Shown: positions 1,153 through 28,200 of the stretch, piece after piece
How positions within the stretch are numbered: position 1 is the first letter of the stretch
Layout of the letters: the number at the start of each line of letters is the position of its first letter
Source of the DNA: a virus
DNA: 64,000 nucleotides
Direction: 5' to 3' (one strand)
Virus record (IMG/VR): IMGVR_UViG_3300005573_000001
The notes under the pieces: generated by a model
Databases searched by the model: none
Seen by the model: only the letters and a program-made list of their open reading frames with translations
What the model was told of the DNA's origin: nothing
Made by a program: the position numbers and the translations under genes

Positions 1153-2616
1153 ATGACTTATAACAATCTTCCAGGAATTCATACACTCTTGAGAGATGGC
1201 GGACTAGTTATCGACAGGCCAGGCGCGCAAACACAGAGCGTCCTTATTATCGCATGTACTGGAACAGCTTTAACTGGCGAAGATACGCAAGAGTGTAAAC
1301 CTGTATGGGTGTCTAACGAAGCAGCATGGGAAAGGCAGGGCTTCGGGAGCGCGTCCATTAAAAATATTGCGTATACAGCCTGGAGGGAAGCTATTAATAC
1401 CGGATGTCAGGATGTAAGGGTGCTCACCGTATACGGAAACAACGGAGCAGACAAATATGAAAACCTGCACAAAGTATACAAGGGCCTCGAGGACTATGAC
1501 GTTGACATTATAGCACTTACGGGCGTTTACGCGGACGACGATGTTGGAAGCCCAACGTTCAATCAAGACTATGACCAAGTAGATTATTGTTCAGTCGGTG
1601 CTAATGAGGTAGACGTAGTAGGTGAAACGCCAGATGGTGACATTGACGGTACGAATACGGTCTTCACCTTGGCTCATACGCTGATTGTTCCAGGGTCAGT
1701 TGTACTCACGAAAACTACAGGAGGCACCTCGGTTACACTTGTCGAGGTCAACAACCTGACTGATGCGAGTGCAAACGCTTATAAGGTAAACTACATCGAC
1801 GGGTCTATCGAAGTCAAGACGGCACCGACCGACGATCCTGAACAGTCGCTTACAGTATCATATGCATACTACGACGCTACGAGGAGTTTTGCCGCACAGC
1901 TCAACGGGTTCCTGAACATAGTATCGCAGAGAACGAGCCAGACGCTTGGTGTAATCGCGTTGAAGCCTTCAGATGACAATGACCTTCTGACGGTAAGAGA
2001 TTACGTTGCCAACTTACCGACGCAGATATACAGTGGACTGCTCCAAGTCGTAGGCGGGCCCGAGTGCATTGCTAAGGATAATTCTGGGAATGCTTACGCT
2101 ACTAGCGGCGTAGCTTCCTATGCGGGTTTAATTAGTACGCTGTCCCCACAATCCGGCCCAGTATACAAGATACTGCCGGGCATCTTTGGACTCACGTATA
2201 CCCTTTCGCCAGCCCAGCAAAGCATCATACTTAATAAGAACATAGTATGTTTCATAATGAGGAATGGACAGGTAAGGGTTTTGGACGGGGTTACGACAGC
2301 CGGTGCCGATAGCGACTATAGACGTCTCACGACGGTAAGGATAGTCAACGAGTTGATTCAGGGGATACGTTCCATCGGAGAACCATTCATTGGCGAGCCG
2401 AACGACTTGCCACATAGAAACGCGCTTGACGCCAAGATCAAGGCCCTTAGCAAAGCCATGGTCAGCGCAGGTGCGCTTGCCGGCGCTTCGTGCGTAATCA
2501 AAGCCACTAACGAACAGGTAATCAACGGTAATATGGAAATTCAACTAGACATTGTACCGGCCAGCGAGACGTTGAGAATCTCTACAACGATCGCCCTAAG
2601 GCCGAGTATAGCCTAA
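1153..2616 (+). CDS. Contractile tail sheath protein
   Basis: 487 aa, strong SD AAGGAGG. N-terminal LPG, YAGLIS motif, C-terminal RRLTTVRIVNELIQGIRSIGEPFIGEPN...IQLDIVPASETLRI typical of the sheath C-terminal domain. Followed by the tube gene. Confidence 0.9.
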   Translation: MTYNNLPGIHTLLRDGGLVIDRPGAQTQSVLIIACTGTALTGEDTQECKPVWVSNEAAWERQGFGSASIKNIAYTAWREAINTGCQDVRVLTVYGNNGADKYENLHKVYKGLEDYDVDIIALTGVYADDDVGSPTFNQDYDQVDYCSVGANEVDVVGETPDGDIDGTNTVFTLAHTLIVPGSVVLTKTTGGTSVTLVEVNNLTDASANAYKVNYIDGSIEVKTAPTDDPEQSLTVSYAYYDATRSFAAQLNGFLNIVSQRTSQTLGVIALKPSDDNDLLTVRDYVANLPTQIYSGLLQVVGGPECIAKDNSGNAYATSGVASYAGLISTLSPQSGPVYKILPGIFGLTYTLSPAQQSIILNKNIVCFIMRNGQVRVLDGVTTAGADSDYRRLTTVRIVNELIQGIRSIGEPFIGEPNDLPHRNALDAKIKALSKAMVSAGALAGASCVIKATNEQVINGNMEIQLDIVPASETLRISTTIALRPSIA

Positions 2617-8234: not shown

Positions 8235-11200
8235 ATGAACAAGTATCAGGCATACTTGAACAGGGAATACCTGAATACACGAGCACGGGCCACCCGTCAG
8301 CGCCATAACAGAGAAGAATCAAGAGAGAGATTTGCCAACATAGTTGGCAGTCTAGCTACCGCAGCCGGGATAATCGGCGGCGTCTACTTAGTGCGCTCTG
8401 GAAAGCTTGGAGACCTGCTTGGTGGCACACTAGGAGAAGGGCTCTCTCGTAATATAGGCAGTGTCAAGCGCGGGGTGGCAGCCGTCGACTCTGCAATACA
8501 GGCCATCAGTGCCGGCATTAGGGAGCGGGGACTTCTTAAATTTCTCGGTGGCGAAAGCACAGAGTATATAACAAAGAAGTTTGGCCGCATCTATGCAGGA
8601 ACGCTGCGTAAAACAAGTACCGCGCTCTCCGGCACAAGCACTATGATAGAAAACATGGCCAAGAGCTTCGAGCGCATAAGTAGTAGTGCGGAAAAGTCTA
8701 TTATATCCCATGCACGCCTGAATACTATTATAGACAGCGTAGAGAAGCAATTCGGCTCCGAGGTCGGGGCATCGTTCAAGGCGAGTGCTCTGGGTGCGCT
8801 ACAGTCAAGCAAGAACCAAGGGCTCTTTGATACACAAAGCCCCGAACAGTTACTCAAGAAGATAAAGTTAGACAAGAGGATTAGCGCTGAGCAACAGAAG
8901 CAAATCTTTGAACATATACAAGGGTTATACAATAGCGGAGCTCTTAGCGACGGGAACCTTATGAGCCCTGCCAGCGTTAAGGAGCAGGCTGAAAAATTCC
9001 GCCAAGCTATACTGAAGGGTGCCATAGAGACACTAACCCCCAAGAAAGAAAGTATCATGGCTAGGTCTATTCTGGCAAGTGGGGGCAGATACGCAACAGC
9101 CAAGGACATCATAGATAATCCCGACCTAATCCTCAATGAGTCGAGGTTTTTCGGCGTAAGGGAACGGGGTATTAGTAGGGCTAAGGAGTCAATCAAGACG
9201 GGACAGTCGGCGTCTAAGCTAGTCCATGAACAGGTGAGAAGGTTCATCGACGAGATGGTGGCTAACGGTGCGGACCCAAGTAAGATTATAATAGACCCTG
9301 GGGTGCTTATAAATAAGGCCGGAGAAGTAGTAGATATACGCGGACTACAAGATGTGTCCCGCCGCGCCATAAGTTATCTAAGTAATAAGTTTGCTATACC
9401 TTTCGTCAACATAAACCCACTAAATCTGTTACACTTCAATGCACAGGAAGCTGCCCGCGAGGCCCCTATGATGACCGAGCTCTTTCGTGGCGAGTTTCAG
9501 CCCGTAATTACCGGCACGCGCACAAGAATGGAAGAGACACTAGTTCGCGTCGGCAGTAAATTATACAACTATTCTGGCGAAGTAGTATCTAAGATACAAG
9601 GAGGCTACCTTACTTCTAATAGATATGGTACTCAGAAGGAAATTCTAGAGGCCATGGCTGCTGTTGGGGAGACACCAAACCAGGGAATATTACAGGAAGT
9701 CTTGGATATAGGCGGCCAAAGGAGAACATCGGAAATTAGACGGGCTATAGGGTTTTTCAGGAAATTCAACGACCCCGACTGGTTGCCAAATAAGTTACGC
9801 GACATAGAGGATGAATATAAGGTATGGAAAGGTACTAAGGGGGCAGAGTTTCCAAACAGGCGACCTAACGAGGCCATAAGACAACTCTATAGCATATTCA
9901 ATCGCCATGCAGATACGCTAGATACGGATACAATAGAGAGCCTGTCAGGCAAATTAATGGATGTCTTTAAGGGTGTCGGATTCACACCCGAAGACTTTAT
10001 GATGGAGACAGAAGAGGATGTTATGCTTACTCTAAGTAAGTATATATCCAGCAATTATGTCAACCATAACAACCTTATTGATAGACAACTTATTGCGGCT
10101 GCTAAACAGTTTAGGGAGAACCCAGAGGCATTCTTTAAGACAAAGGAAGCTGTCTACAGTCAGGGACCTCCGTTCAATGCCGCAGAGAACCTGCAGTTCA
10201 AAGGCACGTTTCTGCGCACAAAGGTTGGCCGCGTAAAGAGGCAACTACAGCAGCAGTTTTTACAGAAGCTAGCCGATTCGGGTAACTTGCAAGAGTCCGC
10301 ATTAGAAAGCCTTGACGCGTTGCAGCAGCATAAGGTAAATGACCTTCTCACCCTGAACTGGCTCAACGGCTTGCAGTATGACATAAAGAATAATACAGGC
10401 AGACAGGCTGAGAAGATATTCGCAGACGTATGGGCGAATCCCGAGAGCGAAATAAGGTATGCTAAGAATTATACAGAATCAATAAGGCGTAATGTCCGCA
10501 AGTACAACTCGCGTTTCAGTAGTTGGGTCCTTCCGCAGACAGAGACCAGCGAGTTTGGAGACCAACCGTATCTATGGGTTAACAAAGCCGTAAATCCATT
10601 CAAGGCAACCCTCGAGGCTATAAACGAATCCCTCACGAGCGGGAAGAATATGCTTGACGCCATTAAGGAGGCTACAGCAGGCACGTTTTCCCAATTCTTC
10701 GCAGGCCGCAAGAATTTACGCGACGTGACTACGGCGACAATGTTCCCATATTACTTTATGTACCGCCTCAACACTGGGATAAGCACGGTAGGACTAGGGC
10801 TGTCAGAGCATAATATGGGAAGCGCACAGCAAATATTCGCCAACTTACTCGCCAGGCGTTACGGTGCTACCATGCTAGCTCTAGGACTAGCCTCGTATCT
10901 AGCCTATGAAATTGGCAATGCTACTGGTAAGAAACCACAGGATGTCGCGGCCGGTGCTTACGTAAATATGACGCTTGGCATGGCCAAGGTCAAGGACATT
11001 TTCGGTATTACAAACCTCTCTAAGTGGACGTCCAACCTATTTCCAGGATCAGAGCGTCTATGGCAGAACCCAATCGGGGCCGCCATAAAGTACGGCACAT
11101 TCGGGTTAATAGGTGACGACCGGAGCATGGAAGAACTCAAGCGCTATTACCAGAAAGGAAGCGACCCTATTCGAAGTGGCCGTTGGTGGGGCATCGGGTC

Positions 11201-14200
11201 TACGACAGAGTTCCGCGGCTGCCTCACTCCAGAGTCCAAGATACAATGTAGGGGCGGTATGGTAAGCGCAAAAGACATCCGGTTTGGAGATCTGGTACTA
11301 ACGAAGGATGGAACATACCACCCGATAACTGCCATAATTCCAAGAGACACCGCAGAAACAATCTATAAGGTTACTACTATACTGGATGATAGCGAAACAG
11401 TATGGCTTACCGGCAATCATCAAGTACTTGCCATACACACCGGCCATACGCCAGAATGGGTGCCTGTAGAGAATATTACACTTAACGACTATATGTTGTA
11501 CCCCATACCAAAGGGAAACAACGACAGCGATACAATATCCATTGGTGGCACGGTGCTTACCGTTAACAAGTCGCTAGGTAGATTAGTCGGGCTATATACC
11601 GTCACAGGACACTGTGAAACAGGTACGGCCAGCATCTTTAAAAGCCTGGTACCTGGAGAGAATCAACAAAGCAGACACTTGTCCAATACTATAATGGATT
11701 TGTCAAACCTGGACTTCTGGCTTGGCTTTATCGAGGCATTTGAAACAACGAGTATCGAAGTCGCGAACTATCGGCTAGCTAAACAAATACAACATATTCT
11801 TCTAAGGCTCTATATCGTCGCGTCAATATCAACGTCGAATAATGCATACAGAATAGATTATAGTAGCAATAATGGGCTTTATAAGTGGGCAGACGACGAT
11901 ACGCTGGCTGTCGCTATCAAGTCTATAGGGACCGCCTATTACAAGGGGGTAGTGTATGACTTCTCGGTAGATACAGAGCCAAGCTTTGTATCATCCGGTT
12001 ACATTATGCACAACTCAAAGATCTCATACTTTGCGCCAAACTGGTACCGTCGCATGAAGTCAGATTACATGATGACGGACGTAGGGTACGGATCAGAGAG
12101 TGAGTATTGGGCTAACAACTGGCTCCCAACGCCGCGTAACCCGCTTGGACCAATCAAGACAATGATACTTGACCCAAACCATTGGCAGCGTAAACACCTA
12201 AAGGATAGGCCAGCAGCTGTTATAGGCGGAGTCCAAGAATTGCAACAGATACCCCTTGTGGGGCCATTGCTTGACACTACAATCGGTCGAGTCTTAAATC
12301 CACGCAGGCTGCGTGCAGGGTATGCCAGGGCCCACAGGCAATATATCAATAGGATTAACGAAGAGATAAAGGCACGCTACGAACAAGAGAGTCAAGGTGG
12401 GTACTACGAAGTACAGCCAGGTGGCGGCCTAGTTCCTGTCGCAGTCCCCGACGTAATAGAAGCCGGAGACGAGGACATAGTTCCCGCAACAGGCTTAAGG
12501 CCTGGTTACTACGGACGCAACGTGTCAGTTAGTGGTATCCATATCACCGACGAAGTAGCGGACAGCAGGCGGCGCGGGATGGGATATGGTGCAGCCCTAT
12601 CAACCTCAGAACTAAGCGACATCAACGCTAGCTTCACCGCAGGGTCTCGCGTAATACCTATTAGTCCTGCTGCAATGCTCAACTCCATTATGTCTAATGA
12701 AGACTATATGGACGCTTTCCTGCCGACTACTAATCCAAGCAGCGTTTCATACCGGCTTGGCGAAGCTAAGTATAGCCTGACTGAGTTAGCCGGCTTATAT
12801 GGATTCACATTTAATATGTTGTTCGGCGGGGAGGGAGCTGCCTCTGGACCCGTCTTACAGTATGGCGGGGATGCATGGAGCATACAAAGAGCCTTCTGGG
12901 ATATGGGGCTTGGAGGATTCCCGGGAGAACTATCAGAGATAGGACGTAGGTTCATACCGAAGAAACGTACGGAGAGACAGTGGAGTCCGTTCAGGAATAC
13001 GATGCCAGAATGGCTGCCTATGGAGTTTCAATATGGAGACCCCTTTACTAAGATAGCACGTGGAGAAGCGAGACTACCCGGCAGCGGATACGAAAGCCTT
13101 AACCAGCTCCATCCAGATATGTTCGGCGAATATGGAGCAATCGACAGATTTAAGATACTCGCCGATATAGCTCCATACTCGGAACAATACAAATATTACA
13201 GCAAGATACTTACCCTATACAACCAAGCCGGGCTGCTTTCTGACGAAGAAAAGGAAGACATACGGGAAATCAAGCATCAGGTCCATCAGCAGAAACAACG
13301 CTATGACATGACGCCGTATAAGTTTCTATATGCTCACACGCAAAGACATAAGGTCAAGATTAAAGAGGTTATTGATGACATTACGTTCATAGCGGAAGGG
13401 TATGCTCATCCAATGAGATTGGCTGGCATAACCATGCCGCCACAATCGGATACCAGTCCCGGAGCACAAGAGGCAAGAGAATACCTCAGGTCGGTTATTC
13501 GTGGCGGCGCAACCATATGGATAGAAACCGACGCAGACCCGCTCTTCGCTGTCCGCGGCGACGTGATGCAGACTATGAGGGTAGCAGTCTTCGACCAGCA
13601 CGGCGAATCTGTATCCAGTAAGTTGGCACGTACCAAATGGGGCGGCCAGAAGGGCGTAGTCAAGGCTGATTACAAAGATACGAGAGCGACTACAGTACGT
13701 GCGTTATATAGCAAGGGCGAGATAACGGTAGGTAAGGTTTGGGAGCTGTTAGTACACCGTAATAACCCATTCAACAATAAGTTTATGCAGGTACGTAGTC
13801 CATACGAACAATACGTTCGAAGGATGGTATACGGCAAAGACTTTAGAACGTGGCAACACCCAATTAAGGGATTCATACAACCTATTATAGACACCAACGC
13901 GATGCGCAACCCAATACTGGCTACGGCAGTGGGTGCACTCGGAGGATCTCTATTCGGAAGGCGCGGGCAAACCGGGGCCAAACTAATAGGGGCCATTATC
14001 GGCGGCGCTATTATGGGCGGGGCCTCATCTCTACGCGCAATTAACGAGACATGGAATAGAATAACCAAGAGATCCGACTATACGTGGATACCGAAACGCC
14101 GCAGACTAGAACGTGAAATCAACGAATACTTTGATAGACTAACATATATAAAGTATAAGGGCCTATACGAGCGAGCCAGAGAATTGGCTCGCAAGGAAGA

Positions 14201-15035
14201 AGGCGTAGACGTAGAAGAACTAGCCAAGTCTGCTCGAGGCGGCAAGGCAATCAGCAAGCGCAGGAGAAAGGCGTTAGAAGCGCGTAAACGTTGGGTATAT
14301 ACCAATATGGCAAACCCGCTAAACGATCCAGACGTCTGCAAGGCGGAGCTTCAGGCAATAAACGAGGAACTTGGAGAAGTCAGCGGAGACACCGCTAAGA
14401 AGTTATATAGGCTTGGGCCTCTTACTATGAAAGCGCTCGAATTCAAGGGTATATACGAATCCACCCTATATGGCGCGACACCTAGCGGAGACTTACAGAA
14501 GATAATAAGGGCCCTCCCAAAAACAGAGCGTGACTTCTTCTCCGGTTTCCTAACGTCGCCTCCAGAAGAACGAGAGAAAATACTACGAGTAGTTCCTCAG
14601 AACGAACGTAGGTTCCTGCAGGCAATGTGGGGTCTAAAGCCAGACAAGGTGAAGTCAAACGAAGAGTATTTCATGTACCACAACTTGCCGGGACCCCTAT
14701 GGGAGGGCTGGAAGCCAGACGTCTCACTCGAGGCTATCAAGCTAAATACAGCCAAGGCAATGGGCTTGGACGTATCAGACCTAGGCTTTTACCCAAGCGA
14801 TGTCAGCGAGGCTAGAGGAGCTGGGAAGGTTTACACTGGCAAGGGGCTAAACTGGTTCAGCTTCGGCAAGCTACACGGGGTCCTTAAGGGCCTTGGACTA
14901 AAGAAGATAGACATCAAATCTTACCTCGGAAATACGCCGCTTTACGATACACAGGTAGATATAGAGGTCGAGTATGACCGTAAGAACGATATAATTAAGT
15001 CAATGAATGATAACTATAGATCCCTGTTCAGGTAG
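8235..15035 (+). CDS. Tape measure protein (2266 aa precursor, about 2001 aa after intein removal) with degenerate thermonuclease-like domain
   Basis: Very long helical-type protein after the tube and chaperone genes, with several Gly/Ala-rich hydrophobic segments (SLATAAGIIGGVYLV; ATMLALGLASYLAY; ILATAVGALGG...IGAIIGGAIMGG). Confidence 0.75.
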   Translation: MNKYQAYLNREYLNTRARATRQRHNREESRERFANIVGSLATAAGIIGGVYLVRSGKLGDLLGGTLGEGLSRNIGSVKRGVAAVDSAIQAISAGIRERGLLKFLGGESTEYITKKFGRIYAGTLRKTSTALSGTSTMIENMAKSFERISSSAEKSIISHARLNTIIDSVEKQFGSEVGASFKASALGALQSSKNQGLFDTQSPEQLLKKIKLDKRISAEQQKQIFEHIQGLYNSGALSDGNLMSPASVKEQAEKFRQAILKGAIETLTPKKESIMARSILASGGRYATAKDIIDNPDLILNESRFFGVRERGISRAKESIKTGQSASKLVHEQVRRFIDEMVANGADPSKIIIDPGVLINKAGEVVDIRGLQDVSRRAISYLSNKFAIPFVNINPLNLLHFNAQEAAREAPMMTELFRGEFQPVITGTRTRMEETLVRVGSKLYNYSGEVVSKIQGGYLTSNRYGTQKEILEAMAAVGETPNQGILQEVLDIGGQRRTSEIRRAIGFFRKFNDPDWLPNKLRDIEDEYKVWKGTKGAEFPNRRPNEAIRQLYSIFNRHADTLDTDTIESLSGKLMDVFKGVGFTPEDFMMETEEDVMLTLSKYISSNYVNHNNLIDRQLIAAAKQFRENPEAFFKTKEAVYSQGPPFNAAENLQFKGTFLRTKVGRVKRQLQQQFLQKLADSGNLQESALESLDALQQHKVNDLLTLNWLNGLQYDIKNNTGRQAEKIFADVWANPESEIRYAKNYTESIRRNVRKYNSRFSSWVLPQTETSEFGDQPYLWVNKAVNPFKATLEAINESLTSGKNMLDAIKEATAGTFSQFFAGRKNLRDVTTATMFPYYFMYRLNTGISTVGLGLSEHNMGSAQQIFANLLARRYGATMLALGLASYLAYEIGNATGKKPQDVAAGAYVNMTLGMAKVKDIFGITNLSKWTSNLFPGSERLWQNPIGAAIKYGTFGLIGDDRSMEELKRYYQKGSDPIRSGRWWGIGSTTEFRGCLTPESKIQCRGGMVSAKDIRFGDLVLTKDGTYHPITAIIPRDTAETIYKVTTILDDSETVWLTGNHQVLAIHTGHTPEWVPVENITLNDYMLYPIPKGNNDSDTISIGGTVLTVNKSLGRLVGLYTVTGHCETGTASIFKSLVPGENQQSRHLSNTIMDLSNLDFWLGFIEAFETTSIEVANYRLAKQIQHILLRLYIVASISTSNNAYRIDYSSNNGLYKWADDDTLAVAIKSIGTAYYKGVVYDFSVDTEPSFVSSGYIMHNSKISYFAPNWYRRMKSDYMMTDVGYGSESEYWANNWLPTPRNPLGPIKTMILDPNHWQRKHLKDRPAAVIGGVQELQQIPLVGPLLDTTIGRVLNPRRLRAGYARAHRQYINRINEEIKARYEQESQGGYYEVQPGGGLVPVAVPDVIEAGDEDIVPATGLRPGYYGRNVSVSGIHITDEVADSRRRGMGYGAALSTSELSDINASFTAGSRVIPISPAAMLNSIMSNEDYMDAFLPTTNPSSVSYRLGEAKYSLTELAGLYGFTFNMLFGGEGAASGPVLQYGGDAWSIQRAFWDMGLGGFPGELSEIGRRFIPKKRTERQWSPFRNTMPEWLPMEFQYGDPFTKIARGEARLPGSGYESLNQLHPDMFGEYGAIDRFKILADIAPYSEQYKYYSKILTLYNQAGLLSDEEKEDIREIKHQVHQQKQRYDMTPYKFLYAHTQRHKVKIKEVIDDITFIAEGYAHPMRLAGITMPPQSDTSPGAQEAREYLRSVIRGGATIWIETDADPLFAVRGDVMQTMRVAVFDQHGESVSSKLARTKWGGQKGVVKADYKDTRATTVRALYSKGEITVGKVWELLVHRNNPFNNKFMQVRSPYEQYVRRMVYGKDFRTWQHPIKGFIQPIIDTNAMRNPILATAVGALGGSLFGRRGQTGAKLIGAIIGGAIMGGASSLRAINETWNRITKRSDYTWIPKRRRLEREINEYFDRLTYIKYKGLYERARELARKEEGVDVEELAKSARGGKAISKRRRKALEARKRWVYTNMANPLNDPDVCKAELQAINEELGEVSGDTAKKLYRLGPLTMKALEFKGIYESTLYGATPSGDLQKIIRALPKTERDFFSGFLTSPPEEREKILRVVPQNERRFLQAMWGLKPDKVKSNEEYFMYHNLPGPLWEGWKPDVSLEAIKLNTAKAMGLDVSDLGFYPSDVSEARGAGKVYTGKGLNWFSFGKLHGVLKGLGLKKIDIKSYLGNTPLYDTQVDIEVEYDRKNDIIKSMNDNYRSLFR
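11220..12014 (+). mobile_element. Intein (265 aa) in the tape measure gene, with degenerate LAGLIDADG remnants
   Basis: Block A CLTPESKI, block B LTGNHQVL (TxxH), block F VYDFSV, block G YIMHN followed by Ser+1. Internal LVGLYTVTGH / FWLGFIEAF / RLAKQIQHILLRL correspond to decayed blocks C/E/H. Confidence 0.93.
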
Positions 15036-15042
15036 GTAAAAC

Positions 15043-18000
15043 ATGGCAGATAATAGACTCGACAAGATTAAGATACATGGGATTACGTATGTAAGGTCAG
15101 ACAAGCTAAGAACGATAGCTGTAACGCCCAAAGCAGCGCCCTTCAGCGATATACAAGAGAATAAGGTAGATGAGGTTTTCAGCAAGCTGCAAGCTGCAGA
15201 CAAGAACGCAGCCATGTTAAATTCGCCTATGCATCAAATTAATGCTAACGTAGACTTTGGGCGACCTGATATAACGTATCGGAATTACTGCAACATCTAT
15301 GAGAACGGCGGCCAAGTATTCGCGTTCGACATCGAGGGCAACAACACTATTATTGGCGGCATAAAGCAATTTGGTGTAACAGAGATTGGTATACATGGAT
15401 ATAAGGTCCCAGCTAAGGCTATGCGTCAGTCTGAGTCAATAACAAAGAGTAGTAGCTGGAATGCGGCAGTCAGGCTTTCGTCGCCACAGGCGGCATACTA
15501 CAAGAAACTACTGGATAGCGGGGACTTTGCTAGCTTATCTGAAGGAGACGCATGGGCCATATCCACCTTGGCTTCGTATAGCGGTGCCAAGTTTGGACCT
15601 GATGGCAGTATCGTCTCTAAAGGTCCGATACGCGTTTCTCCCAGACACGTAAGGGAATGGCTAGAATCAAGCGCATCTAACGTCAGAGCTGCCCGTGCTG
15701 GCTTAGAGGCGCTTCAGAGACATGGCTTGCCATTAAGTCAGGCTGCCGCACAGGTAAACAAGTATATAGCCGATAATACGCTACCAGGAATGCCAGTATT
15801 CTCGCTTGGGCAGGGCAGCAGGGGGTTTGACCTTCCGATACTACAGCGCGCAGGATTTAATTTACCGACCGATCATATAGACATGTTGGAGCTTATGACG
15901 CAGTCAAAGGAAGCTCCAGAGATACTACGTGGCGCTGCGGACCACATAGTTATGAACTATAGCTTGTCGTCATATGCTAAATCGGTTCTTGGACATGAAG
16001 AAACACACTCGGCTGCCGCAGACGCGGAACTAGTCGGTACCCTGTTTGAGAGAAGTATCTATAAAACAGACAGGCTTAGTCTTGGAAAGAAGAAACCAAT
16101 CAGACAGATGTTCGCAAACCCAGTAGGGGCAGCCATCGAGGCCGATAAGCTATACGCACTGCGCAGCGCATCGACATCCGACGGCAAGGTCCTCTTCGGC
16201 GGTGTCTGGGAGAATGTCAGTAAAAGTAAGAATGGCGAAATCAAGTGGCGACTTAATAAGTATAATACATACCCTGTTAGTAAATATAGTATGTATAGTG
16301 CCTATACATACGATATGCCTGTAAGCGCCATACCTAAAGATATGGCCAGTAAACTAGCCGAGGAACATGGAATTGCGTCTGACGAAACGTTGAAAGTATT
16401 AAAGCTTACTGAACACGGCGGCGACTACGTGTCGCGAATGGTGTTTAGGAACCAAGATGACTTGGAGGGGTTTATACAGCACACCTTTGGACGCCCACCA
16501 AAGAATGGGGCCGCGACAGTAGAGCGACAGGCCCACATGATAGACCAAGCACGTAGACAGTATATCAATACATGGAGCGATGTCGCCAAGTTTACGAAGT
16601 ATACTAAGGCCAGTCAGATACTCAAAAAATACGTAGATACTATGAGTGCGGCTGGAGAAAGATATAGTATACCGACGTTCAATACGATCGACGAGATGGT
16701 GTCTTACTGGAACGACGTCGTAAAGAAAGTTGGCGGCAAAAATCCTCTGAACACAAGGTCTCAAATCAGGGACTTTATCATGCTAGGAGATAGGTATGTA
16801 TCTGAAGCAATGGTTAGAGGGGAGCTTCTCAACGAGCTTCCAACCCTTGAGGACTCATACAGCAAACAGGTAGCGGTACGCCGGCTGTATCACGAACTAA
16901 AGTCGGCTGGCGCACTGCCAAAACCAACTGGAGTTCCATACGCGTCCAAGGCATTTATCCTTAATGTAGACGAGGAGCTTGGAGAGCAGTATTATACCGT
17001 GCTTAATCGCTGGAACAAGCGTGACTTAATACGAGGAATAAACAACGCCATCTATGGTTCAGGTGCAAAGAACATCGGAGCTGTAAATCGAAGAGCTAGA
17101 CTAATCGTTCAAGAACTTGCAGATAGAGGAGTCGTTGACCAGTCTGTAGCTAAAACGTTGCTTGACATGACTACAGGTAGAGGTATCGTAACGCCAACAT
17201 ATATATCCAGCAAATTAGCTTATGCAATCCAACATGGTCCCAGCCAAGATATGCCTAATGGCGAAATCCCTGAAACAATAATGGGGATACCAGTAAGGGG
17301 CACAGTAGAGGACGTACGCAGCAGAATCCGCACAAGAGCTGCCAACGGCGCAGTAGAAAGGGCATTATCCTTTACAAGGCAATTCACCTCCGGTCCCGCC
17401 TCAGGTACAGGTAAACTTACACCAGAAGGTGAGGCAATACTCGAGAAGTATCAGAGTAGGGTTACCAAGAGGCTTAAAGAGAGTCTCGGGGTTACCGGTA
17501 ATATCGGAGAAATAGTAAAGACTAAGACTGGAGCTCGTATCATGATCTCGGTTCCTAATATGAAGGACGAGGTCAATAAGCTCATGGAAAACTGGGGAAG
17601 ACACGGCTTCAGTACTACGCTATCATATGATAGGACGTCCAACACGCTATTAGTTGCCGCGCAACGAAAGAGCATACAAGGCGCTACAGATATAGCGGAG
17701 ACGATCTCTAGCGGAAAGGTCGTTAGGTTTGCCATACCCTTAAGTCATGCCGAGGGATACTATACGATAGGCGGAACACGTAGAATGGCTCCTTTCTTCC
17801 TAAAGGAGGCCAAAGGCACAACACATCGGTTCACGGACATGTCCGTAGAGCTTACACGAAGGTATGCAAACTACGCTAGACTTGTCGCAGAAAAACTAGA
17901 GAGCGGCGCTAGCTATACTGAAGTTAATAATATGATACAGTCACTTCCAGGCAAGATGTTTATGGAAATGACAAACTTGGACTCCGACCTTAAGACTACA

Positions 18001-21000
18001 ATCAGTAGAAGCGGCGACTGGATGAGAACTAAGGCCATCTTCTTCGGCGATGTGAGCTCTTTTGGCAAGCCATGGAAAGACATCGGTTGGGACAAGAAGA
18101 TGGCAGCCAGGGAGCTTAGCGAGATGATGTGGAAAACCTACGGCATAACAACAGTTCCGTTCCGCGAGTCAGGGGCCGGACACAGTATGGGTATTCTCTA
18201 TGACCTTGTCAAACATACAAGGATTGGGCAAGAGCACATGACGCTCTATAGTCCCACTTTCTGGCAGACTGCCAACATCCTGAATGCCGGCGAGTTCAGA
18301 GTCAAGGGTGGGTATACCACTATAGAGGAGGCAATAAAAAACAACGAAAATATATTATTAGAGAAAAGCGGCAAGCTTGGCGAATATGAGCGCCCGCTCC
18401 TAACAGCATTCGAGCAAAAGCAGGAGCGTACCGGTAGCGCCAAAAGGTTTATGCTTAAGACGGTATACATGGAAGACGCTATGCTTCACGAGCTTGGATT
18501 AAAGGAAAGCGTATATAAGGGTAATATAATCGTCGACAAAGACGTAGCAAAGATTTTAGTGGCTACCGGCCATACGAAGAAGTATAAGATTCCATGGGAA
18601 AACTTAGACCCGGAAATACAGGCCAGGTTAGCTACAGAAGAATACAGCGGGTCAAGGTTCTTAGAGTTAAGCCCTAAAAGAAATGGCGGATACGTATATA
18701 ATGGCAATAGAATGGTCACGGTTGGCAAGGTGGCATCAGAAAGCATCGCGTCCAACATCTCAGACCCGACAAACTATAGACCGATAACTCATAAGCTCTC
18801 AGGAGACGTATATACACACATCGAATACGACAAGCGTACGCAGACGTTAATGCTTAGGACCATATACGACACAAGTACCGCCAGCAAACTGTTTGCGGGA
18901 TCTGATAAGGTCATGCCAACATTCGTAGACATGAACCCAATCATATTGCGGGCACGGGAGAAATTTGGTATAGACCTCACCGGTGTAAGGGCTATCACCT
19001 CCGCTTCAGAAATAACCAAGAAAGGAGCATGGGATACGCCCGTCGCATCATGGATGCTTTATGGTATAAAGAGCGGGGTAGACAGAGGTATAGAACTACC
19101 AGAAATACAGAAGTCACTAAGGACGCACTTTGGACTCAAGACAACAATCGACTCACGCGGCAGACTCATCAGTAGAGGGTACGACTTTAGGCTTGCCAGT
19201 AAATTCGAATCAGACGAAGCAAGGTGGGCAAACTGGTTTAAGAGCATGGGCATGAGCATGGACGATGCTCTGCTCAAGACCACAAGCGGGAACGAGCTCT
19301 TTATGGGATACACAGAATTCGGTATGAGCGACGTGTTCCGCTATATGCGCGCCTATGGGAAAACTCTCGACGAGGCTAACAAAGGCATATACTTCGGTAA
19401 ACGTGAACTAGACGCACTTAGGAAATTAAAATCAGATATTACAGACAACATAAGCTATCGTGGTGCCGAACAGACAATAGCATACATCCAAGGTGAAATC
19501 CAAAGAAGTCCCGAATTTCGCAACGTTAAGCCATCTCAGTGGGGTTCATTGTGGTACTCTCCATTAGAAAGTCTATATAAACAAGACCCAACTGTATCTA
19601 TAGTTACAGATACGATGACCGGTGAGGAAATCGGAAAGAGAATACTGCGCAGCGGTCGTGTCTTCAATAAGAAGGGCGGACCAGAAACCTTAGTATATAG
19701 CAGGGGGTCTTACATTCCAAACCTGCCGGAAGGCGTAAGGGCAATACCGGTAAGTGAGTTACACTCTATAGAGGGTACACTTAATATGGGGGAACCAATT
19801 CGGACACACGTAGGTGACGCAGTGTCAGATATTGGTAGAGTCATCAAGGGTACCGTCTACGACCCGCGGCTCGCCGGCAAAAGCGGAGGATGGCACTTAG
19901 AGCTACCGTTCCCGGTAACAGTCGGGGATGAAATGGTACGAAAGACAGTATCAACTATGTATATGATAGGAGCTCAGGAGGTAAGGGGTCGGATATTCAA
20001 CAACGACGCACTAAGAATAGCAGATGCCCTTGTCGGAGCCATCAATACCTTCCAGAACCCCGAAGCGGCGGCAAGTGAAGTGACAAGAGCCAGAGAGAGG
20101 ATCCCGCAATTAGTCAACCAGTATTACGGAGAGGTTTGGCGTCAGATATTCAGCAAGGATAGCAAGCTGTATGAAGAGTTCCTCGGTGGATATGTAGGTA
20201 GGTCTGCAATACTCACTCCTAAAACAGAAAACGTCCTAAGCAACCTTGCCGAGAGCAACACGGTAAAAATCTCAAGACAGGCTGCGGCGACAATGCTTGA
20301 AGGCATAAGTCAGGCAGACCAAATTATGAGGGAGATGGAACATGGCGAAGGAATACCAAGTTTAATGGGCAGGGAGCCGATATTTCATAGGGGTGCCCAA
20401 AGTTATGTCAGAACCAAGATAGACCCTAACATTGAGAAGAACGTAATCATGCTGACAGTCGGACAGGAATATATAGCACAGGCAGATAACGATGGCGACC
20501 CGATAAGACTGAAGCTGCTACTCGGACGCAATCCTGACAAGTATATAGAGAACCTTCATACAGCAAGGGAATGTGTCGATAGGCTCCTTGCTACTAACCC
20601 GAGTCAAGCGGAGTTCAACAAGCGGCTGCAACAGGAACTGTACAGGTACCGCAATAATGCAGATATGCCCCTCATAATAGAATCCATACTCAAGGAGCGC
20701 GCCGCCAAGAGAAACACAGATGCCGTTACGCTACTAATAGCCGGCGAAGAAACATCTAAGGTATCTACTAATATGCTTAAGAAGGCTCGGGAGCAGAAAG
20801 AACAATGGGACTATATTAAGTCAGCCAGGTCTAATAAGACACCCGAGATGCGGCAATTAGAGATGATGATTGCCAGCGAACAGAATATGGCCAAGGAGCT
20901 CTACATCGGTCGCATGAGTAACATTAACCTTAGGATAAAGACCTTTGTAGACTACGTTAACGAGTATGGTTCCGACGCTATAACGGTAGGCAAGTATGTA

Positions 21001-22260
21001 AAGAACACATTAGGACTAGCGACAGCAAGCGCCTCAATAGATAGTTACAGCAACGTATTTAAGGCCCTTAGCGACACTGCCTCCACTCAAGCGGAGCTCC
21101 TGTACGACGCAGCCAGTAAAATCGGCGGAGGTATGGAGAGCAACGTTGTTACAGACCTTAATAAGAAAATCATGCAACACCTTGGAGAGGGAACTACTCA
21201 AGAGGAAGTCCGCAGACTATACGACAAGCTAGGCAGTCTATTCGATGCATATCAGAGTGGCGGATGGAAAGAGGGCAACAGGCTACGTCAAGAGTTCCTA
21301 AAGTTGACCCCAGAGCGTGCGCTGTCCATCGATATGCAGTCTATAACACTCAACGGGCAAATCGACGACATCAGGAACAGACTGGTTGACGTATACGGTG
21401 CTGGCAACAGAGACGAAATAGAGAGCACCATTAAGAAGTTCTTCAGTATTAGTGGTTCTAATATGACGCTCGGCGACTATATTGACTATATAGATAAACA
21501 ATACAGCACCATAGAAAGTAGTATGAGCGCGCTTGGCGATAGCATGAAGCAGGTCTTTGGACAGCATATGCCGTTTATGCATGGTAGAGAAAGCGCAACC
21601 GGTACTACCGCGCTCATCGCCGCAGCACAGATGGAAGGCAATATGCCTGTTGTAATGTCCCCCACAGACTTCCGTAATCTACAAAGCTTTATAGGTAAAA
21701 GTAGTGAACACATAGCCGAAGTTGAGGAAACCTTAAGGTATAGGGCGAACATAGCAAGCGCAGCTATGAGGGAAGCAAGTACAGAGGCCAAGATAACCAA
21801 TGAAATTGTGTCAGACAGTGCACGGGTAATGGCTGATGACATACTAAAATCCAGACAGCGCAAAATTAACGTACCAGGCGGCAAACTGATTGGCGGCGTT
21901 ATGGCAGCCAGTCTTGCAGCTGCATTGTTTGCAGGAGAACCAGAAGAAAAGACAAGTGGTCAGGCACAAGCCGAAGACGTGCAAGGCACATACAAAGAAT
22001 TAGACCCTTCACTATTGCCGCCGTCCTCTCTAGGTACTGGTCCCACAGCAAGAATAACAACTAATACAGGGGTGTCACGCATACATATAAGCGTAAGCGA
22101 TCCCAAAGGCATAAGCCAGGCGCAGCTCAATCGAATCGTAGAACAGTACGTGAGGACCCCAAGGATATACAACTCACGTAAGGATAACTCTGCCAGGATC
22201 GACAGGCAGTGGACGGAAGATAAGATAAGAAAAGCTATGACCTATGGGTATACATTTTAA
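15043..22260 (+). CDS. Putative single-chain two-barrel (DPBB) RNA polymerase fused to an N-terminal DEDDh 3'-5' exonuclease; candidate virion RNAP
   Basis: Exo motifs FDIE (D96,E98), GFDLPIL (D263), HSAAAD (H322,D327). RNAP beta'-like motifs LGGYVGRSAI, GREPIFHRG (R1777) and QADNDGD (D1815,D1817,D1819; nt 20482-20499). Confidence 0.75.
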   Translation: MADNRLDKIKIHGITYVRSDKLRTIAVTPKAAPFSDIQENKVDEVFSKLQAADKNAAMLNSPMHQINANVDFGRPDITYRNYCNIYENGGQVFAFDIEGNNTIIGGIKQFGVTEIGIHGYKVPAKAMRQSESITKSSSWNAAVRLSSPQAAYYKKLLDSGDFASLSEGDAWAISTLASYSGAKFGPDGSIVSKGPIRVSPRHVREWLESSASNVRAARAGLEALQRHGLPLSQAAAQVNKYIADNTLPGMPVFSLGQGSRGFDLPILQRAGFNLPTDHIDMLELMTQSKEAPEILRGAADHIVMNYSLSSYAKSVLGHEETHSAAADAELVGTLFERSIYKTDRLSLGKKKPIRQMFANPVGAAIEADKLYALRSASTSDGKVLFGGVWENVSKSKNGEIKWRLNKYNTYPVSKYSMYSAYTYDMPVSAIPKDMASKLAEEHGIASDETLKVLKLTEHGGDYVSRMVFRNQDDLEGFIQHTFGRPPKNGAATVERQAHMIDQARRQYINTWSDVAKFTKYTKASQILKKYVDTMSAAGERYSIPTFNTIDEMVSYWNDVVKKVGGKNPLNTRSQIRDFIMLGDRYVSEAMVRGELLNELPTLEDSYSKQVAVRRLYHELKSAGALPKPTGVPYASKAFILNVDEELGEQYYTVLNRWNKRDLIRGINNAIYGSGAKNIGAVNRRARLIVQELADRGVVDQSVAKTLLDMTTGRGIVTPTYISSKLAYAIQHGPSQDMPNGEIPETIMGIPVRGTVEDVRSRIRTRAANGAVERALSFTRQFTSGPASGTGKLTPEGEAILEKYQSRVTKRLKESLGVTGNIGEIVKTKTGARIMISVPNMKDEVNKLMENWGRHGFSTTLSYDRTSNTLLVAAQRKSIQGATDIAETISSGKVVRFAIPLSHAEGYYTIGGTRRMAPFFLKEAKGTTHRFTDMSVELTRRYANYARLVAEKLESGASYTEVNNMIQSLPGKMFMEMTNLDSDLKTTISRSGDWMRTKAIFFGDVSSFGKPWKDIGWDKKMAARELSEMMWKTYGITTVPFRESGAGHSMGILYDLVKHTRIGQEHMTLYSPTFWQTANILNAGEFRVKGGYTTIEEAIKNNENILLEKSGKLGEYERPLLTAFEQKQERTGSAKRFMLKTVYMEDAMLHELGLKESVYKGNIIVDKDVAKILVATGHTKKYKIPWENLDPEIQARLATEEYSGSRFLELSPKRNGGYVYNGNRMVTVGKVASESIASNISDPTNYRPITHKLSGDVYTHIEYDKRTQTLMLRTIYDTSTASKLFAGSDKVMPTFVDMNPIILRAREKFGIDLTGVRAITSASEITKKGAWDTPVASWMLYGIKSGVDRGIELPEIQKSLRTHFGLKTTIDSRGRLISRGYDFRLASKFESDEARWANWFKSMGMSMDDALLKTTSGNELFMGYTEFGMSDVFRYMRAYGKTLDEANKGIYFGKRELDALRKLKSDITDNISYRGAEQTIAYIQGEIQRSPEFRNVKPSQWGSLWYSPLESLYKQDPTVSIVTDTMTGEEIGKRILRSGRVFNKKGGPETLVYSRGSYIPNLPEGVRAIPVSELHSIEGTLNMGEPIRTHVGDAVSDIGRVIKGTVYDPRLAGKSGGWHLELPFPVTVGDEMVRKTVSTMYMIGAQEVRGRIFNNDALRIADALVGAINTFQNPEAAASEVTRARERIPQLVNQYYGEVWRQIFSKDSKLYEEFLGGYVGRSAILTPKTENVLSNLAESNTVKISRQAAATMLEGISQADQIMREMEHGEGIPSLMGREPIFHRGAQSYVRTKIDPNIEKNVIMLTVGQEYIAQADNDGDPIRLKLLLGRNPDKYIENLHTARECVDRLLATNPSQAEFNKRLQQELYRYRNNADMPLIIESILKERAAKRNTDAVTLLIAGEETSKVSTNMLKKAREQKEQWDYIKSARSNKTPEMRQLEMMIASEQNMAKELYIGRMSNINLRIKTFVDYVNEYGSDAITVGKYVKNTLGLATASASIDSYSNVFKALSDTASTQAELLYDAASKIGGGMESNVVTDLNKKIMQHLGEGTTQEEVRRLYDKLGSLFDAYQSGGWKEGNRLRQEFLKLTPERALSIDMQSITLNGQIDDIRNRLVDVYGAGNRDEIESTIKKFFSISGSNMTLGDYIDYIDKQYSTIESSMSALGDSMKQVFGQHMPFMHGRESATGTTALIAAAQMEGNMPVVMSPTDFRNLQSFIGKSSEHIAEVEETLRYRANIASAAMREASTEAKITNEIVSDSARVMADDILKSRQRKINVPGGKLIGGVMAASLAAALFAGEPEEKTSGQAQAEDVQGTYKELDPSLLPPSSLGTGPTARITTNTGVSRIHISVSDPKGISQAQLNRIVEQYVRTPRIYNSRKDNSARIDRQWTEDKIRKAMTYGYTF

Positions 22261-22272
22261 GGAGTACTATAC

Positions 22273-25200
22273 ATGTCAAACAGCGATAATGTACTAAGTC
22301 AGGCAGAATTCAGTAGTAGCGCAGTTAAGGCGTTTCAAAAAGCACATGCACAGGATAATATCAACTATCAATTTGAGATGTTTCCAGGAGGAATCAATCC
22401 CGATCCGTCTGGCACCAATGGCGTACGAATTACAACACCAGAGTGTCTGTACGGCAAGGTCGTAAAGGTATACGACGGCGATACCTTCGATATTGAATTG
22501 TACGCAGTAAGCGAAGGATTGCAACTCTGGATTAATGGTGGTTTGGAGGACCCGTTCCTGTATGACACCGCTAGTAACAAGCACATATACTATACAGTCC
22601 GGTTAGTTGGCATCGACTGCGCCGAGTTAAAGAGCACATCTAATAGTGAGGAGAAGAATAGAGAATATCTCTATTATCTTGGTATACGCGATACAACGGA
22701 TACCCTATCTCGCATGTACGATCTAGCCGAAGAAGCTAAGGCTGCTACTGCTAAGATGGTCCTAAACAAGATGGTAGTCGTCTGGCTAGAAAATGACGTT
22801 GCGGCACCACACCATGTAGACACACATGGGAGACTAGTCGGATGCGTATACGTACCGTTAACCAAGGGTAACAATGGTAGCTCAAAAGACTACCCAGAAT
22901 GGAATCAGATAGGTATCAATGTAAATACGACCTTGCTTGCCACTAAAACCAAGATATTTGAGCATGAGAACCCTGACACTCGTCTGGCAAAGATCTCTAT
23001 CTATTTGGATAGTAGCAATAACGAGCTCGTAAGCCGTTTTCCGATAGCAGCATGGGCTAACTTAGGCATGAAACCTGGAGAACAGCAGACTGATGAAGTC
23101 GATACAGAGCTTAACAGGATGATTGATAAGTGGCTCGAAGCTATAAGCGTCAGTGAACGTGGTGGGGTTTATATAGGGTCTGACGGAACCCTATGGGGGC
23201 ACAAAACAGAAGGAGACAACATCGTATGTAAGGAAATAATAGCTGGTGGTAAGGACGGCGTTACGTTTGGCACTAGAAGGTTTGTACAGGACGACATATG
23301 GGTTAATAATCTAAATCCAATACCAGCAGCCGAGGACGAGGCAGAACTATCGTCCAAAGGCTATAAATTAGACCTTCAGGACATACCTGGTATCAATCAA
23401 TATGGATATGTCGATACTCGCGTACGTATCGGAGACACAATCCTTACAGTTCCTCCTTTAGCAATCCGTGTGCGTAACGTAACACAGAGTACTAAGGTTA
23501 ATACGTTGCGTAATAATAGCTCGATGCAAACTCAGTCCGGTTACGTAAACACAGTAGTCGAAATGGAACTATTCTTTCACGACCTTGAGTCGATTAATGG
23601 CATCGAGATACCTAACCCATTCCAGAATGCCGACTTCACATTCAAGGATGGCGTACCACCGATATTAACGGAGAGATGGAAGAATCCCTACGCCATCAAT
23701 GGTCTGCGCAGTCTAATCGCCCAGTTTAAGAAGGCTCCATTCCTCCCTATATATTGTGAATACCTAGAGGATGCCCATGAAATCGGGGCGGTCGCACTAG
23801 AGTCAATCAACGTAAGTACAGTGCCAGGATTCCCGAACTGCCTAATGGCTACGCTAGTTATGACTGCGTTCGACTGGAACACATACTTAATAGATTGTGC
23901 CGACTTCGGAGACAAATTCAACTGGCCTATCTTCAGGTGGTATTACCAGCATTGTATGCAGCCAAGTAAGAACAATAAGGGGTACGACACCTTTACATAC
24001 CTTCCAGCCATCGGCAAAGACAATACTACTAGTGATAAGATCAGCTTCTATATAGCAGACGAAGGGGTCCTTGCGGCGCGTCTTTGGGCTATAAAGGAGA
24101 TGCGTAACTATATATCGCCTCTTGACTTTAAGGAACAGTCTAAGGACAAGACAGTAGCATTAGGACAAATGCAATACGACGGCATCACTATTAACAGTGC
24201 TATAGACCAAGCTAATAGGTTCAAACAATGGATAGCAGAGACTACAGACACGAACCGGCGCGGGAATGCACAGGTAGTGCCCGACTTTCGGTGCGCAGGA
24301 ATGTCGGCAAATGACCCACCGGTGCACCTACCAACCACCTATGGGCAAGTATATCATATTTTAACTGGGGGCGGCAAATATCCGTTCAATATGATGCCGC
24401 CATCAATTAATCGTGACGGCAATGTCGTATTCGAACAGTTTGCCGGCAGGTTGTGCGTCTCTACATACCTAGGATGTCCTGTTGAGAATTTCTATGACAT
24501 GTTCGGCAATCCGATCAACTTGTATAGCTATAACACCCGTCCCAGTCCATATCAGATATTCACTGGCCATTATGCAGACTACTTAAAGCATCTTGGAAAG
24601 AGCGCATGTGCGGAAGACGTAGCAAAGATGTTACCAGAAGCGGTCTGGGCTAAATACTTTACAGAAATGATGGAGTATGTGTATGGCAAGAATGCGACGG
24701 ACTACTACTTTGTCATTAACGGCATGTTGCCTACAAGGTTATATGATCTTACAGATACGGGGATAGCCATGGGCTATGCTCTCGACTCGGTGTTTAACAA
24801 TATAGCATTCATCAAGTTTGTAGGGATGAACAAGATACAACTACTATATGACTCAGCTAATTCTAAGATTACTGAAACCACTAGGAAGAATATTGACGAT
24901 AACCCTTATCTTCTAGCGCAAGGCGGCGGTATGATGTACATACCGCTCTATGCCGAGATTAACTCCGTCATTATAGAAGGGAGTAAGTACGTATTCATTG
25001 ACATACCCAGCAATGAGGAAAGCGCAGGGTGCGTACGTGTAGTCGCCGCAATACCGCTTGGAGACGACGTTATATGTGCCCAACTAAAGAGAGCAGCCAA
25101 ATACTACGACGAGTCTATCCAGGGATATAGTAACTTTATCAATTACATGAATAAATTCTATGAGAGTGACGAGTCGGATCTCCCAATGCTACTCGCTGTA

Positions 25201-28200
25201 ACTAACGACAAAACAAAGAGTAGCGACCCAAACTATAATACATACTTTATGGATGCAGAGGCGCTATCAGTAGACGTAACGCTCGAAAACGTATTCGCCA
25301 CACAGCAACTCCAAGAAATGCCATCGCCAACGATACAATACTTAGGCAGTCAAGACGGCTATATCAATATAGTCTATCAGACCAACAATATGAACGATGT
25401 CAAGGCGCTTCAAAGGTTATTTTCGACATCACAGCGTATAGCTCGGGACTACAGAATCGCAATTAGTTCAGCCTTCTTAGGCATCGAGAATAGCTTTATC
25501 AACATGATGGGCATAAACCATTGTCTAGTTGATAGGTTCGAGGTGTCAACGATAGCCGGATTTCCTGGCAGCTACAGCATTGCCCTTGCACTCGTCGCAT
25601 TCGACAAATCACAGAGGCGGCGCGAAGAACTTGCGAATATGCCGCTTGCGCCGGATATGGACGAAGATACCACTGTAATGGACTATAAGCTGCAGACTTC
25701 CACAGCAAAGAAGGAAATGTTGCAGAGGATGCAGGCATATAACCTTAAACCTAATAGCTCAAGCGACGACGTAATAAAGAGGATGCCGTTCCTAGGACTA
25801 TTTAGCTTCGTGTCACAGAATGACGACAAACTTAAGAGCGCTATATTCCAGTATAAGCTGCAGACGCAGGAAGTCTACCCAGACCTGGAGCTGCCGACGT
25901 GGGAGGAATTCGCATGCGCCATTCCATACTTGAACTGCGGAATAAAGAGTATAGAGGAGTATAATGATAAACTACAGACGTTTACGGAAGCACCTATAGC
26001 GCAGGCGCGCGGCAAATACGTCGACCCCGACTTCTACATTAAGTGTGACATCACATTCAGTATGGAGACGATAGGGGAGATGTTCGATAATAATACAAAG
26101 GCTATGTTGCTCAAGGATACCTATGGAGCTAGAGCAGCCGACATTGCGCCTGCAGTCAGCATAACTAACGCATTAGGACGTAGCGATGCGTCCGACGAGA
26201 TGCAAGTCCCATATGTATCCTTCAACGATCAGTTCGCATATATGGATTCTGTACAACGTGACGTAGCCGGCCAAATTCAAGCTATAGAAGAACAGAACAG
26301 GAAGGAAGCTTACAATATAGAGCCCGCATCGACCGTAACGGTAGCTATGTGGGCCAACATAGAGCAAGGTGGGTGTGAGTTTAATATGATAGACCCGACA
26401 CCCGACCAAAAGAATTCTGGAGATGAGACATACAGCGAAGACCTATCTATTAGGCCAGAAGGCGATGGCGGAATCCTGAAGCGCATGTTCTCCGACTCCA
26501 ACTTCAATGGCTTCACTAAGGAACCTGGCTTTAACAAGATATACGACAAGCTTCTCGACAGCGAGGTTAACGAGTTATACGCAAAGATACTTGAGGCCGA
26601 GGTTGACAAAACGGTCATTAAGGAACCTACAGACGACGAAGTGGACATCTTTATAGAGGGCATGGCGGCACAACTGTTCCGTACGGTATCCATAGTAGAA
26701 GACGACGGCAACTTAAGCCAGGTCGCTCTTACGCCTAGTACGTGGAAATTTAATCACACGGAATACACACTAAGAACTGGCAACGACGTAGCAAGCGGGT
26801 TCATCATAGAAAGTGCATCTGCTGCTAAAGGAAAGAACAGCTGGACATATGGACAAAGGACCGTTTCGGCACCCCAAATAACCGTACGTAAGGTAATCAA
26901 TGCGTTCAAGGCTATCCTAGATATTGGAAGTCAATGGGATCAATTCATGCAAAACCCCTACCTCGTGCGTAATCAGAAAACACATGTACCCAGAGTAAAA
27001 CTTTACGACGCAGAACACATCGTCACCTACGATGATGGTAGTATCAAAATAGGTATGGCCCAAGTCTGCACTAACTGGGACGTAATCGAAGACGAAGAGG
27101 ACATCGCCAGGCTGGCATGGGACTGGCAATTTAACGTATTCTGCGGATTCAAGAGGTTCATACAACTATTATACAAGAATGCTACTCATGGTAACCATTC
27201 GCATGAAGCATATGCTTGGCCGCTCGATTACGCTATGGCTCAGTACTGGGATATTGACAACGACCTGAATAGTAACATGTACATTCAGACACGCAACAAG
27301 ATGATTAGTAAGTATGGACAAAGGCGTGCTGCTATGGCCAACTTCAGCCATCTAGTTACACAGGGCGTTGCGCACCAAGTACAGGAAGAGTTAGCCATTA
27401 AGCTATATGAACACAACGGCGTAATAGGACAAAGTACAGTACATAATGGCATCTTACTACCCGAACTAAAGTATGCAGACAACTACGTCGGACGGTACAA
27501 CGAGGAAATAAACCTATCTGGAAGCGAATACAATGTAGACATCCAAGAGTGGAGTAAGTTACACGAGGCACTAATAATGGACCGTGCACAAATTGGTGCG
27601 CACATATTACCGCGACTCCCTGTCTTAGAAGTTGGATTCTCTACTAACACAAGCTCCCCCGAACACCTGTCTGTCCCATATATTAGCGCGTTTGCAAGGA
27701 TTGCAGTATTTCAGGCACTAAGCGACTACATCCATAAGGATACTAAGAGAGTAGAGGCAATACAAAATCTAACTAGTGCAATCAATAGCGTACATAGCCT
27801 TATTAGTGTAAGTGAAATTCCGCCCACCGAGAAGGAAAAGAGTATAAAAAAGGTAAGAGATGCTATATTAAACTTGTATAAAACCGATCCAACACTCTTT
27901 GCGTTGTTCATGTACGAGAGCGAAGCATTGCGCGGAGACTGGATTGTGCGCACAGGGAGCGGAGCAACCACAAGTTATATTACAGTACCAATGAGAAGGG
28001 CCGAAGACGGGACCTACAAGACAATATATATCCGGTATGGTATCAATATAAATCCAACTGTCTCACCGAACATGACAATTCCAGCAACGTATATGGGACA
28101 AGAAAATGTAGTAGAGAGCGACTTGGGACCCATAGACATATCGGCATGCAATTATAAGCCAGAGGACGACCAAGTAGTCTTTAAGTGCAGTGTCGACAGC

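Follow-up and report, generated by a model that had tools for sequence, protein, structure and literature searches.

A predicted DEDDh exonuclease fused to a single-chain two-barrel RNA polymerase in a phage tail-module protein

A 2,405-aa protein encoded in a phage tail operon was found by sequence comparison and structure prediction to combine an N-terminal DEDDh (DnaQ-like) 3'-5' exonuclease with a single-chain two-barrel RNA polymerase. That this is the architecture of the tail-module protein is very nearly certain. The window (the whole stretch of DNA analysed, 64,000 nt of IMG/VR record IMGVR_UViG_3300005573_000001) was read on the strand given. The nuclease is proposed, with a probability of about 0.5, to be delivered together with the polymerase and to trim free single-stranded 3' ends, most likely those of the incoming phage DNA. 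Virion two-barrel polymerases in tail proteins are already known, and a literature search (thin on subscription journals) retrieved no description of the DEDDh fusion or of this polymerase family. If the proposal is true, the protein would belong to a new family of virion polymerases and would bring a conserved injected exonuclease to the earliest step of infection.

The operon in the 64-kb window runs from sheath genes through two genes at the tail-chaperone position to three giant genes. The features that set the gene in its context are as follows.

1153..2616, plus strand: tail sheath gene, marking a contractile-tail operon (PHROG tail sheath, 3e-60)
8235..15035, plus strand: upstream gp145-like virion gene with an intein, used as synteny marker (match to gp145)
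15043..22260, plus strand: exonuclease-RNA polymerase gene, 2,405 aa (open reading frame, synteny, identical in three assemblies)
15043..22260, plus strand: slot of 0305phi8-36 gp146, WH1 gp095 and KLEB27-3 gp034 (synteny)
21865..22257, plus strand: C-terminal hydrophobic stretch and conserved end, common to most genes in the gp146 slot
22273..31074, plus strand: downstream giant gene at the gp147 (baseplate hub) position, 2,933 aa (weak N-terminal SNase match, E 0.001)

The gene at 8235..15035 matched gp145 of Bacillus phage 0305phi8-36 as well as the corresponding genes of WH1, Edson, KLEB27-3, Moorella phage MTATph1 and Acinetobacter phage ME3, and pBtic235-type plasmid records, 22 in all, gave matches too; the 2,405-aa gene therefore occupies the gp146 slot. 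Its C-terminal region (21865..22257) is a probable tail or baseplate anchor. The coding DNA of 15043-22260 was letter-identical in two JGI assemblies and one ENA assembly, which may share one sampling site, and the longest of the three contigs measured 174 kb. A fusion gene of the same kind is present in the cultured phages WH1 and KLEB27-3. An assembly artefact absent from relatives, one of the two outcomes that would have refuted the original prediction, was therefore rejected; the pairing is retained in dozens of distant phages. Homologs of the downstream gene (22273-31074) are variously annotated as nuclease, lysozyme or NlpC/P60, and cargo thus varies at the gp147 position too. Inteins were seen in two virion structural genes, 8235-15035 (aa ~996-1260) and 3686-4963 (tail-tube position).

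The nuclease and the region that follows it were mapped as below.

15304..16062, plus strand: DEDDh (DnaQ-like) 3'-5' exonuclease domain, about aa 88-340 (profile matches, Atlas, catalytic conservation in the family)
15325..15336, plus strand: ExoI motif FDIE, starting at aa 95, with D96 (nt 15328) and E98 (nt 15334)
15400..15780, plus strand: insertion between ExoI and ExoII, about aa 120-245 with approximate limits, family-wide, with conserved L176, Y179 and G220
15808..15837, plus strand: ExoII motif with D263 (nt 15829)
16006..16023, plus strand: ExoIII motif H322-x4-D327, with H322 at nt 16006 and D327 at nt 16021
16075..16962, plus strand: conserved region after the nuclease, aa 345-640, with weak matches in polymerase-less relatives too

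The ExoI DxE, ExoII D and ExoIII HxxxxD residues thus occur in order (D96, E98, D263, H322, D327), exactly where the original prediction had placed them. The long insertion that it had described was also borne out: ExoI and ExoII are 167 aa apart here and about 91 apart in E. coli epsilon, so the insertion is real. For aa 70-350, ESM Atlas features pointed to exonuclease clusters with a score of 0.93; RNase_T accounts for 90% of one of these, which is DnaQ-like. No Atlas assignment was obtained for aa 345-1040. A single-sequence AlphaFold model of the nuclease had a pLDDT of 34, too low for a fold to be read from it.

Pfam and PHROGs recognised no exonuclease or polymerase family in the 2,405-aa protein, and word-indexed protein searches, phmmer (1.8 billion proteins) and a search of PDB sequences returned nothing beyond the protein itself. 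Relatives were therefore sought through the upstream gene. The C-terminus of gp145 was used as bait, 163 loci were fetched from the best 80 per scan (a sample, not a census), and the genes downstream of the bait were reduced to 113 at 85% identity. Because relatives were turned up by synteny, the blank direct searches reflect divergence.

An N-terminal nuclease was recognised in 62 non-redundant proteins of the 113 (median identity 19%), and the five catalytic residues (D, E, D, H, D) were kept in 62/62. In alignment A5 (52 sequences, 19% median pairwise identity) D96, E98, D263, D280 (nt 15880 in the reading frame 15043-22260), H322 and D327 were each present in 52/52, E114 in 47/52 and H278 in 22/52; the remaining Asp, Glu or His positions of the query were kept in at most 10/52. 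The nuclease family profile matched solved proteins with values from 7e-11 to 5e-4, among them DinG (7e-11), PolC (6e-8), small DnaQ-like DNases, ExoI and RNase T, as expected from the DEDDh identity first proposed. Searched singly, 14 of the 52 members matched RNase_H_2 and six matched RNase_T. Together these data indicate that 15304..16062 encodes a genuine DEDDh domain, a predicted 3'-5' exonuclease whose catalytic residues are under selection. Firmicute DinG, the PolC exonuclease, E. coli ExoI and RNase T share its ExoI, ExoII and ExoIII motifs with HxxxxD but not its family-specific insertion of about 75 residues between ExoI and ExoII, and in contrast to DinG- and PolC-type enzymes it is fused to an RNA polymerase rather than to a helicase or a DNA polymerase.

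Fusion to the polymerase was common in the family. A polymerase barrel was present in the same chain in 53 of the 62 N-terminal copies; seven were cut by the end of the contig or locus, and two had lost the aspartate triad by deletion. Both domains were thus kept in 53 of the 55 copies long enough to judge, which answers how often homologs retain the pair and agrees with the proposed position of the nuclease at the N-terminus of an RNA polymerase. The two deleted alleles lie on large Bacillus plasmids (L018:11967-18218, KBAB4 pBWB401; L020:10806-17057, H3 pH3-552), where an internal deletion took the triad and the nuclease motifs were kept; the gene upstream is also shortened in both. Automatic database names catch one half only, for example 'ribonuclease H-like' and 'DNA-directed RNA polymerase' for different clusters.

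The polymerase features of the query are given below; about 700 residues lie between the nuclease and the first barrel.

18181..19356, plus strand: beta-type half (DPBB-B) with the basic pair K1282/K1289 (Z 13-15 to beta/Rpb2 chains)
19519..20637, plus strand: beta-prime-type clamp part and DPBB-A, with RxPxxH (R1777, nt 20371) and D1815/D1817/D1819 (triad, nt 20485-20499)
20890..21087, plus strand: bridge-helix motif (G1956, N1960), then an atypical trigger-loop region

R1777, P1779, D1815, D1817 and D1819 of DPBB-A were conserved in 53/53 relatives; of the basic pair in DPBB-B, K1282 was present in 51/52 and position 1289 was Lys or Arg in 52/52. The polymerase family profile matched phiKZ beta-prime at 3e-7. 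A predicted model of aa 1040-2160 (pLDDT 64, pTM 0.65) matched beta/Rpb2 over its first 400 residues (Z 13-15) and beta-prime/Rpb1 over the next part (Z about 10), and single chains matched across both halves (QDE-1, Z 13.0 over 323 residues; P74-26 gp62, 10.4; P23-45 gp96, 9.3-9.5). The partner of the nuclease is accordingly predicted, from conserved motifs and the model, to be a single-chain, cell-type two-barrel RNA polymerase. Two uncharacterised viral proteins in BFVD also matched the model (A0A172Q0S6 of ME3 and A0A075BUT7 of Microcystis phage MaMV-DC, E about 1e-5) and are possible further unannotated two-barrel polymerases.

A non-standard product such as primers had been raised as a possibility, with PolD as the comparison; in this reading the protein would synthesise DNA or primers and its exonuclease would proofread them. 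The exonuclease-then-polymerase layout fits such an enzyme, and PolC and family B proofreading domains are among the exonucleases nearest to the present domain. Archaeal PolD (DP1-DP2) likewise pairs a two-barrel core with a 3'-5' exonuclease, but there DP1 forms a subunit of its own, of calcineurin-like type, and a PHT steric gate takes the position of the RNA polymerase Arg (PMC7708050). The PHT gate is absent here; residues 1777-1782 form an RxPxxH motif of the RNA polymerase RxPxLH type, the Arg of which selects ribose (PMC7862312). Since R1777 is invariant (52/52) at the position where PolD has PHT, a DNA product is unlikely, and the profile and fold matches are to RNA polymerases. The fold matches listed did not include PolD DP2, an absence that by itself excludes nothing. 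On this evidence a PolD-like activity is extremely improbable.

Two features of the query depart from the family. The ExoII Asn, expected four to five residues before the Asp and present in 60/62 N-terminal copies, is replaced by Gly258; this Asn is a substrate-binding, not a metal-binding, position. In the polymerase, the bridge-helix motif is kept and the trigger loop (20956-21087) aligns ambiguously at low pLDDT, which would mean either that about 19 aa were deleted or that Gln and Lys were lost. Among relatives the trigger-loop motif has Gln or Glu in 50/51, Lys in 51/51 and His in only 28/51. A compensated frameshift in this region was considered and rejected, as the other frames are full of stops and none restores the motif. 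With the ExoII Asn missing and the trigger loop odd, the query protein may be weaker than its relatives. The misaligned trigger loop, Gly258 and the position of the query nuclease as the longest branch on the nuclease tree could also mean that one of the enzymes is decaying in this phage and that the protein is mainly structural, a tape measure. Yet neither site has lost a metal ligand, the Arg and the two basic residues are intact, and the 7.2-kb frame is open; decay is considered very unlikely.

The two modules were also found apart. Nuclease motifs occurred without a polymerase core in eight relatives (gp146, MTATph1 CDS27, L040, L059, L076, L103, L121 and L140), in which the nuclease lies mid-chain behind 830-1,250 unrelated residues; the ExoI, ExoII and HxxxxD residues are present, with large insertions and weak single-motif scores. 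Searched in full, the 0305phi8-36 and MTATph1 genomes, both complete, contained no DPBB-A of the fusion family. A permuted or decayed polymerase in the first 1,200 residues of the gp146-like proteins was considered and rejected (hhalign probability 0.1%, no telling Pfam family). Conversely, polymerase motifs occurred without the nuclease in at least three relatives (ME3 gp36, L009:15743-20554; L063:12763-18498; L153:10707-14168), and the complete ME3 genome gave no match to the nuclease profile. Each module can therefore persist without the other. The triad of ME3 gp36 is unusual in that Gln replaces Gly, and the proteins of L045, L046 and L056, each about 1,250 aa long, are candidate minimal versions.

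On a quick nuclease tree, six of the eight polymerase-less proteins grouped in a single branch (98% support), which points to a state of long standing; a single origin of the polymerase-less forms is possible on this tree. On the neighbour-gene tree these proteins were scattered over at least three places, which suggests gene exchange. Neither module was present in about 30 further loci. A well-supported clade of 27 loci (L080-L098, L149-L182) has slot genes of about 1,600 aa with neither nuclease nor polymerase motifs, several of them split in two.

The separability of the modules weakens proofreading as the main role, and with it the suggestion that the nuclease proofreads transcripts. In the most general form of that suggestion the nuclease serves the polymerase by trimming extruded or mismatched RNA 3' ends, rescuing backtracked complexes or maturing transcript ends, and so replaces host Gre factors before phage proteins exist. 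The RNA-cutting enzymes RNase T and DinG among the profile matches would suit this role, as would retention of the fusion in 53 divergent proteins and the trigger-loop His in only 28/51 relatives, from which intrinsic cleavage may be weak. Against these points stand the eight intact nucleases without a polymerase, the polymerases without a nuclease, and the roughly 700 residues between the nuclease and the first barrel, and we consider service to the polymerase somewhat unlikely. A stricter version, in which the tethered DEDDh domain edits the polymerase's own product as a DNA-polymerase-style second editing site replacing intrinsic and Gre-assisted cleavage, is a little more doubtful still. 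Persistence of the fusion in 53/55 copies fits functional coupling equally well, and the polymerase-less forms, with their large nuclease insertions, may have changed role. On balance a nuclease that is independent cargo rather than a proofreader is moderately favoured.

The slot points to how such cargo could reach the cell. In Thermus phage P23-45, gp96 is a virion two-barrel RNA polymerase fused to the tape measure (Chaban et al., bioRxiv 10.1101/2022.12.01.518664 / PMC10770324; PDB 8H2M, 8H2N). Both proteins hold a single-chain two-barrel RNA polymerase within a giant tail-module protein. The gp96 paper (PMC10770324) nowhere mentions an exonuclease, whereas here a DEDDh domain precedes a mid-chain polymerase; gp96 has no clamp and comes from a phage with a non-contractile tail, whereas the present model has clamp-like parts and the present tail is of the contractile type. 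In crAss-like phage phi14:2 gp66 (Z 6.0) and Neurospora QDE-1 a beta part likewise precedes a beta-prime part in one chain, but with no detectable sequence similarity among the listed matches. To our knowledge, neither carries a DEDDh domain.

The nearest studied relative by position is gp146 of 0305phi8-36 (L008:15129-22742), which has the same slot, the same conserved C-terminus and the same DEDDh motifs (D1223/E1225, ExoII, H1685-x4-D). It differs in that the nuclease is mid-chain behind about 1,200 unrelated residues and that it has no aspartate triad, no DPBB-A and no polymerase barrel; an unrelated RdRP/YonO-like polymerase is encoded elsewhere in that genome. It is annotated as tape measure protein, with the DEDDh motifs unmentioned (Hardies et al., 2007, PMC2147016), an assignment that rests mainly on length correlation (PMC2147016). 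In that genome gp145, not gp146, is nearer the chaperone genes. According to a record note, gp146 was found in virions by mass spectrometry; it is the only slot member with documented virion presence and is polymerase-less. A protein long filed as purely structural thus probably contains an enzyme, and a group of Bacillota phages and plasmid-phages resembling 0305phi8-36, among them pBtic235 and the cultured WH1 and KLEB27-3, would carry an unannotated RNA polymerase and nuclease in the 'tape measure' gene.

By analogy with P23-45 gp96 and with gp146, the 2,405-aa protein would be packaged and enter the cell with the phage DNA; virion delivery of the exonuclease-polymerase protein is likely. 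The polymerase would then make the first phage transcripts. The nuclease would act as co-delivered, semi-independent cargo, not as an obligate proofreader of the polymerase, and would trim back free single-stranded 3' ends where the phage DNA enters. Incoming phage DNA is the leading candidate target, its ends or flaps being trimmed for circularisation or template preparation. This choice is made because many family members are circular plasmid-like phages that persist as circles, a weak step, and DNA ends as the target are put forward only tentatively. Among DEDDh enzymes sequence cannot tell a DNase from an RNase, and S. aureus DinG acts on both ssDNA and ssRNA (PMC3270479).

An injected enzyme could instead serve counter-defence or host takeover: during the opening minutes of infection it would break down single-stranded DNA or RNA of the host, such as nucleic acids linked to defence or short oligonucleotides. 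The nuclease is separable cargo in a virion-slot protein, and differing N-terminal or internal cargo is swapped in the gp146 slot across the family, as this function would allow. That nearly every member of so divergent a family retains it would fit a core function better than an arms-race gene tied to particular hosts, and counter-defence is judged unlikely. For the preferred role in end trimming and for its alternatives alike, the existence of natural forms with both modules, with the nuclease alone and with the polymerase alone, together with culturable hosts (Bacillus australimaris for KLEB27-3), makes the role of the nuclease directly testable.

Insertions were also seen at or beside the slot. 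In MTATph1 (L006:14226-21582) the slot gene is broken by a transposase and an ATPase-like gene, and the conserved C-terminus is a separate open reading frame. In Cetobacterium somerae plasmid p3 (L019:14218-20715) an inserted type I restriction-modification cassette separates the gp145-like gene from the giant gene that follows.
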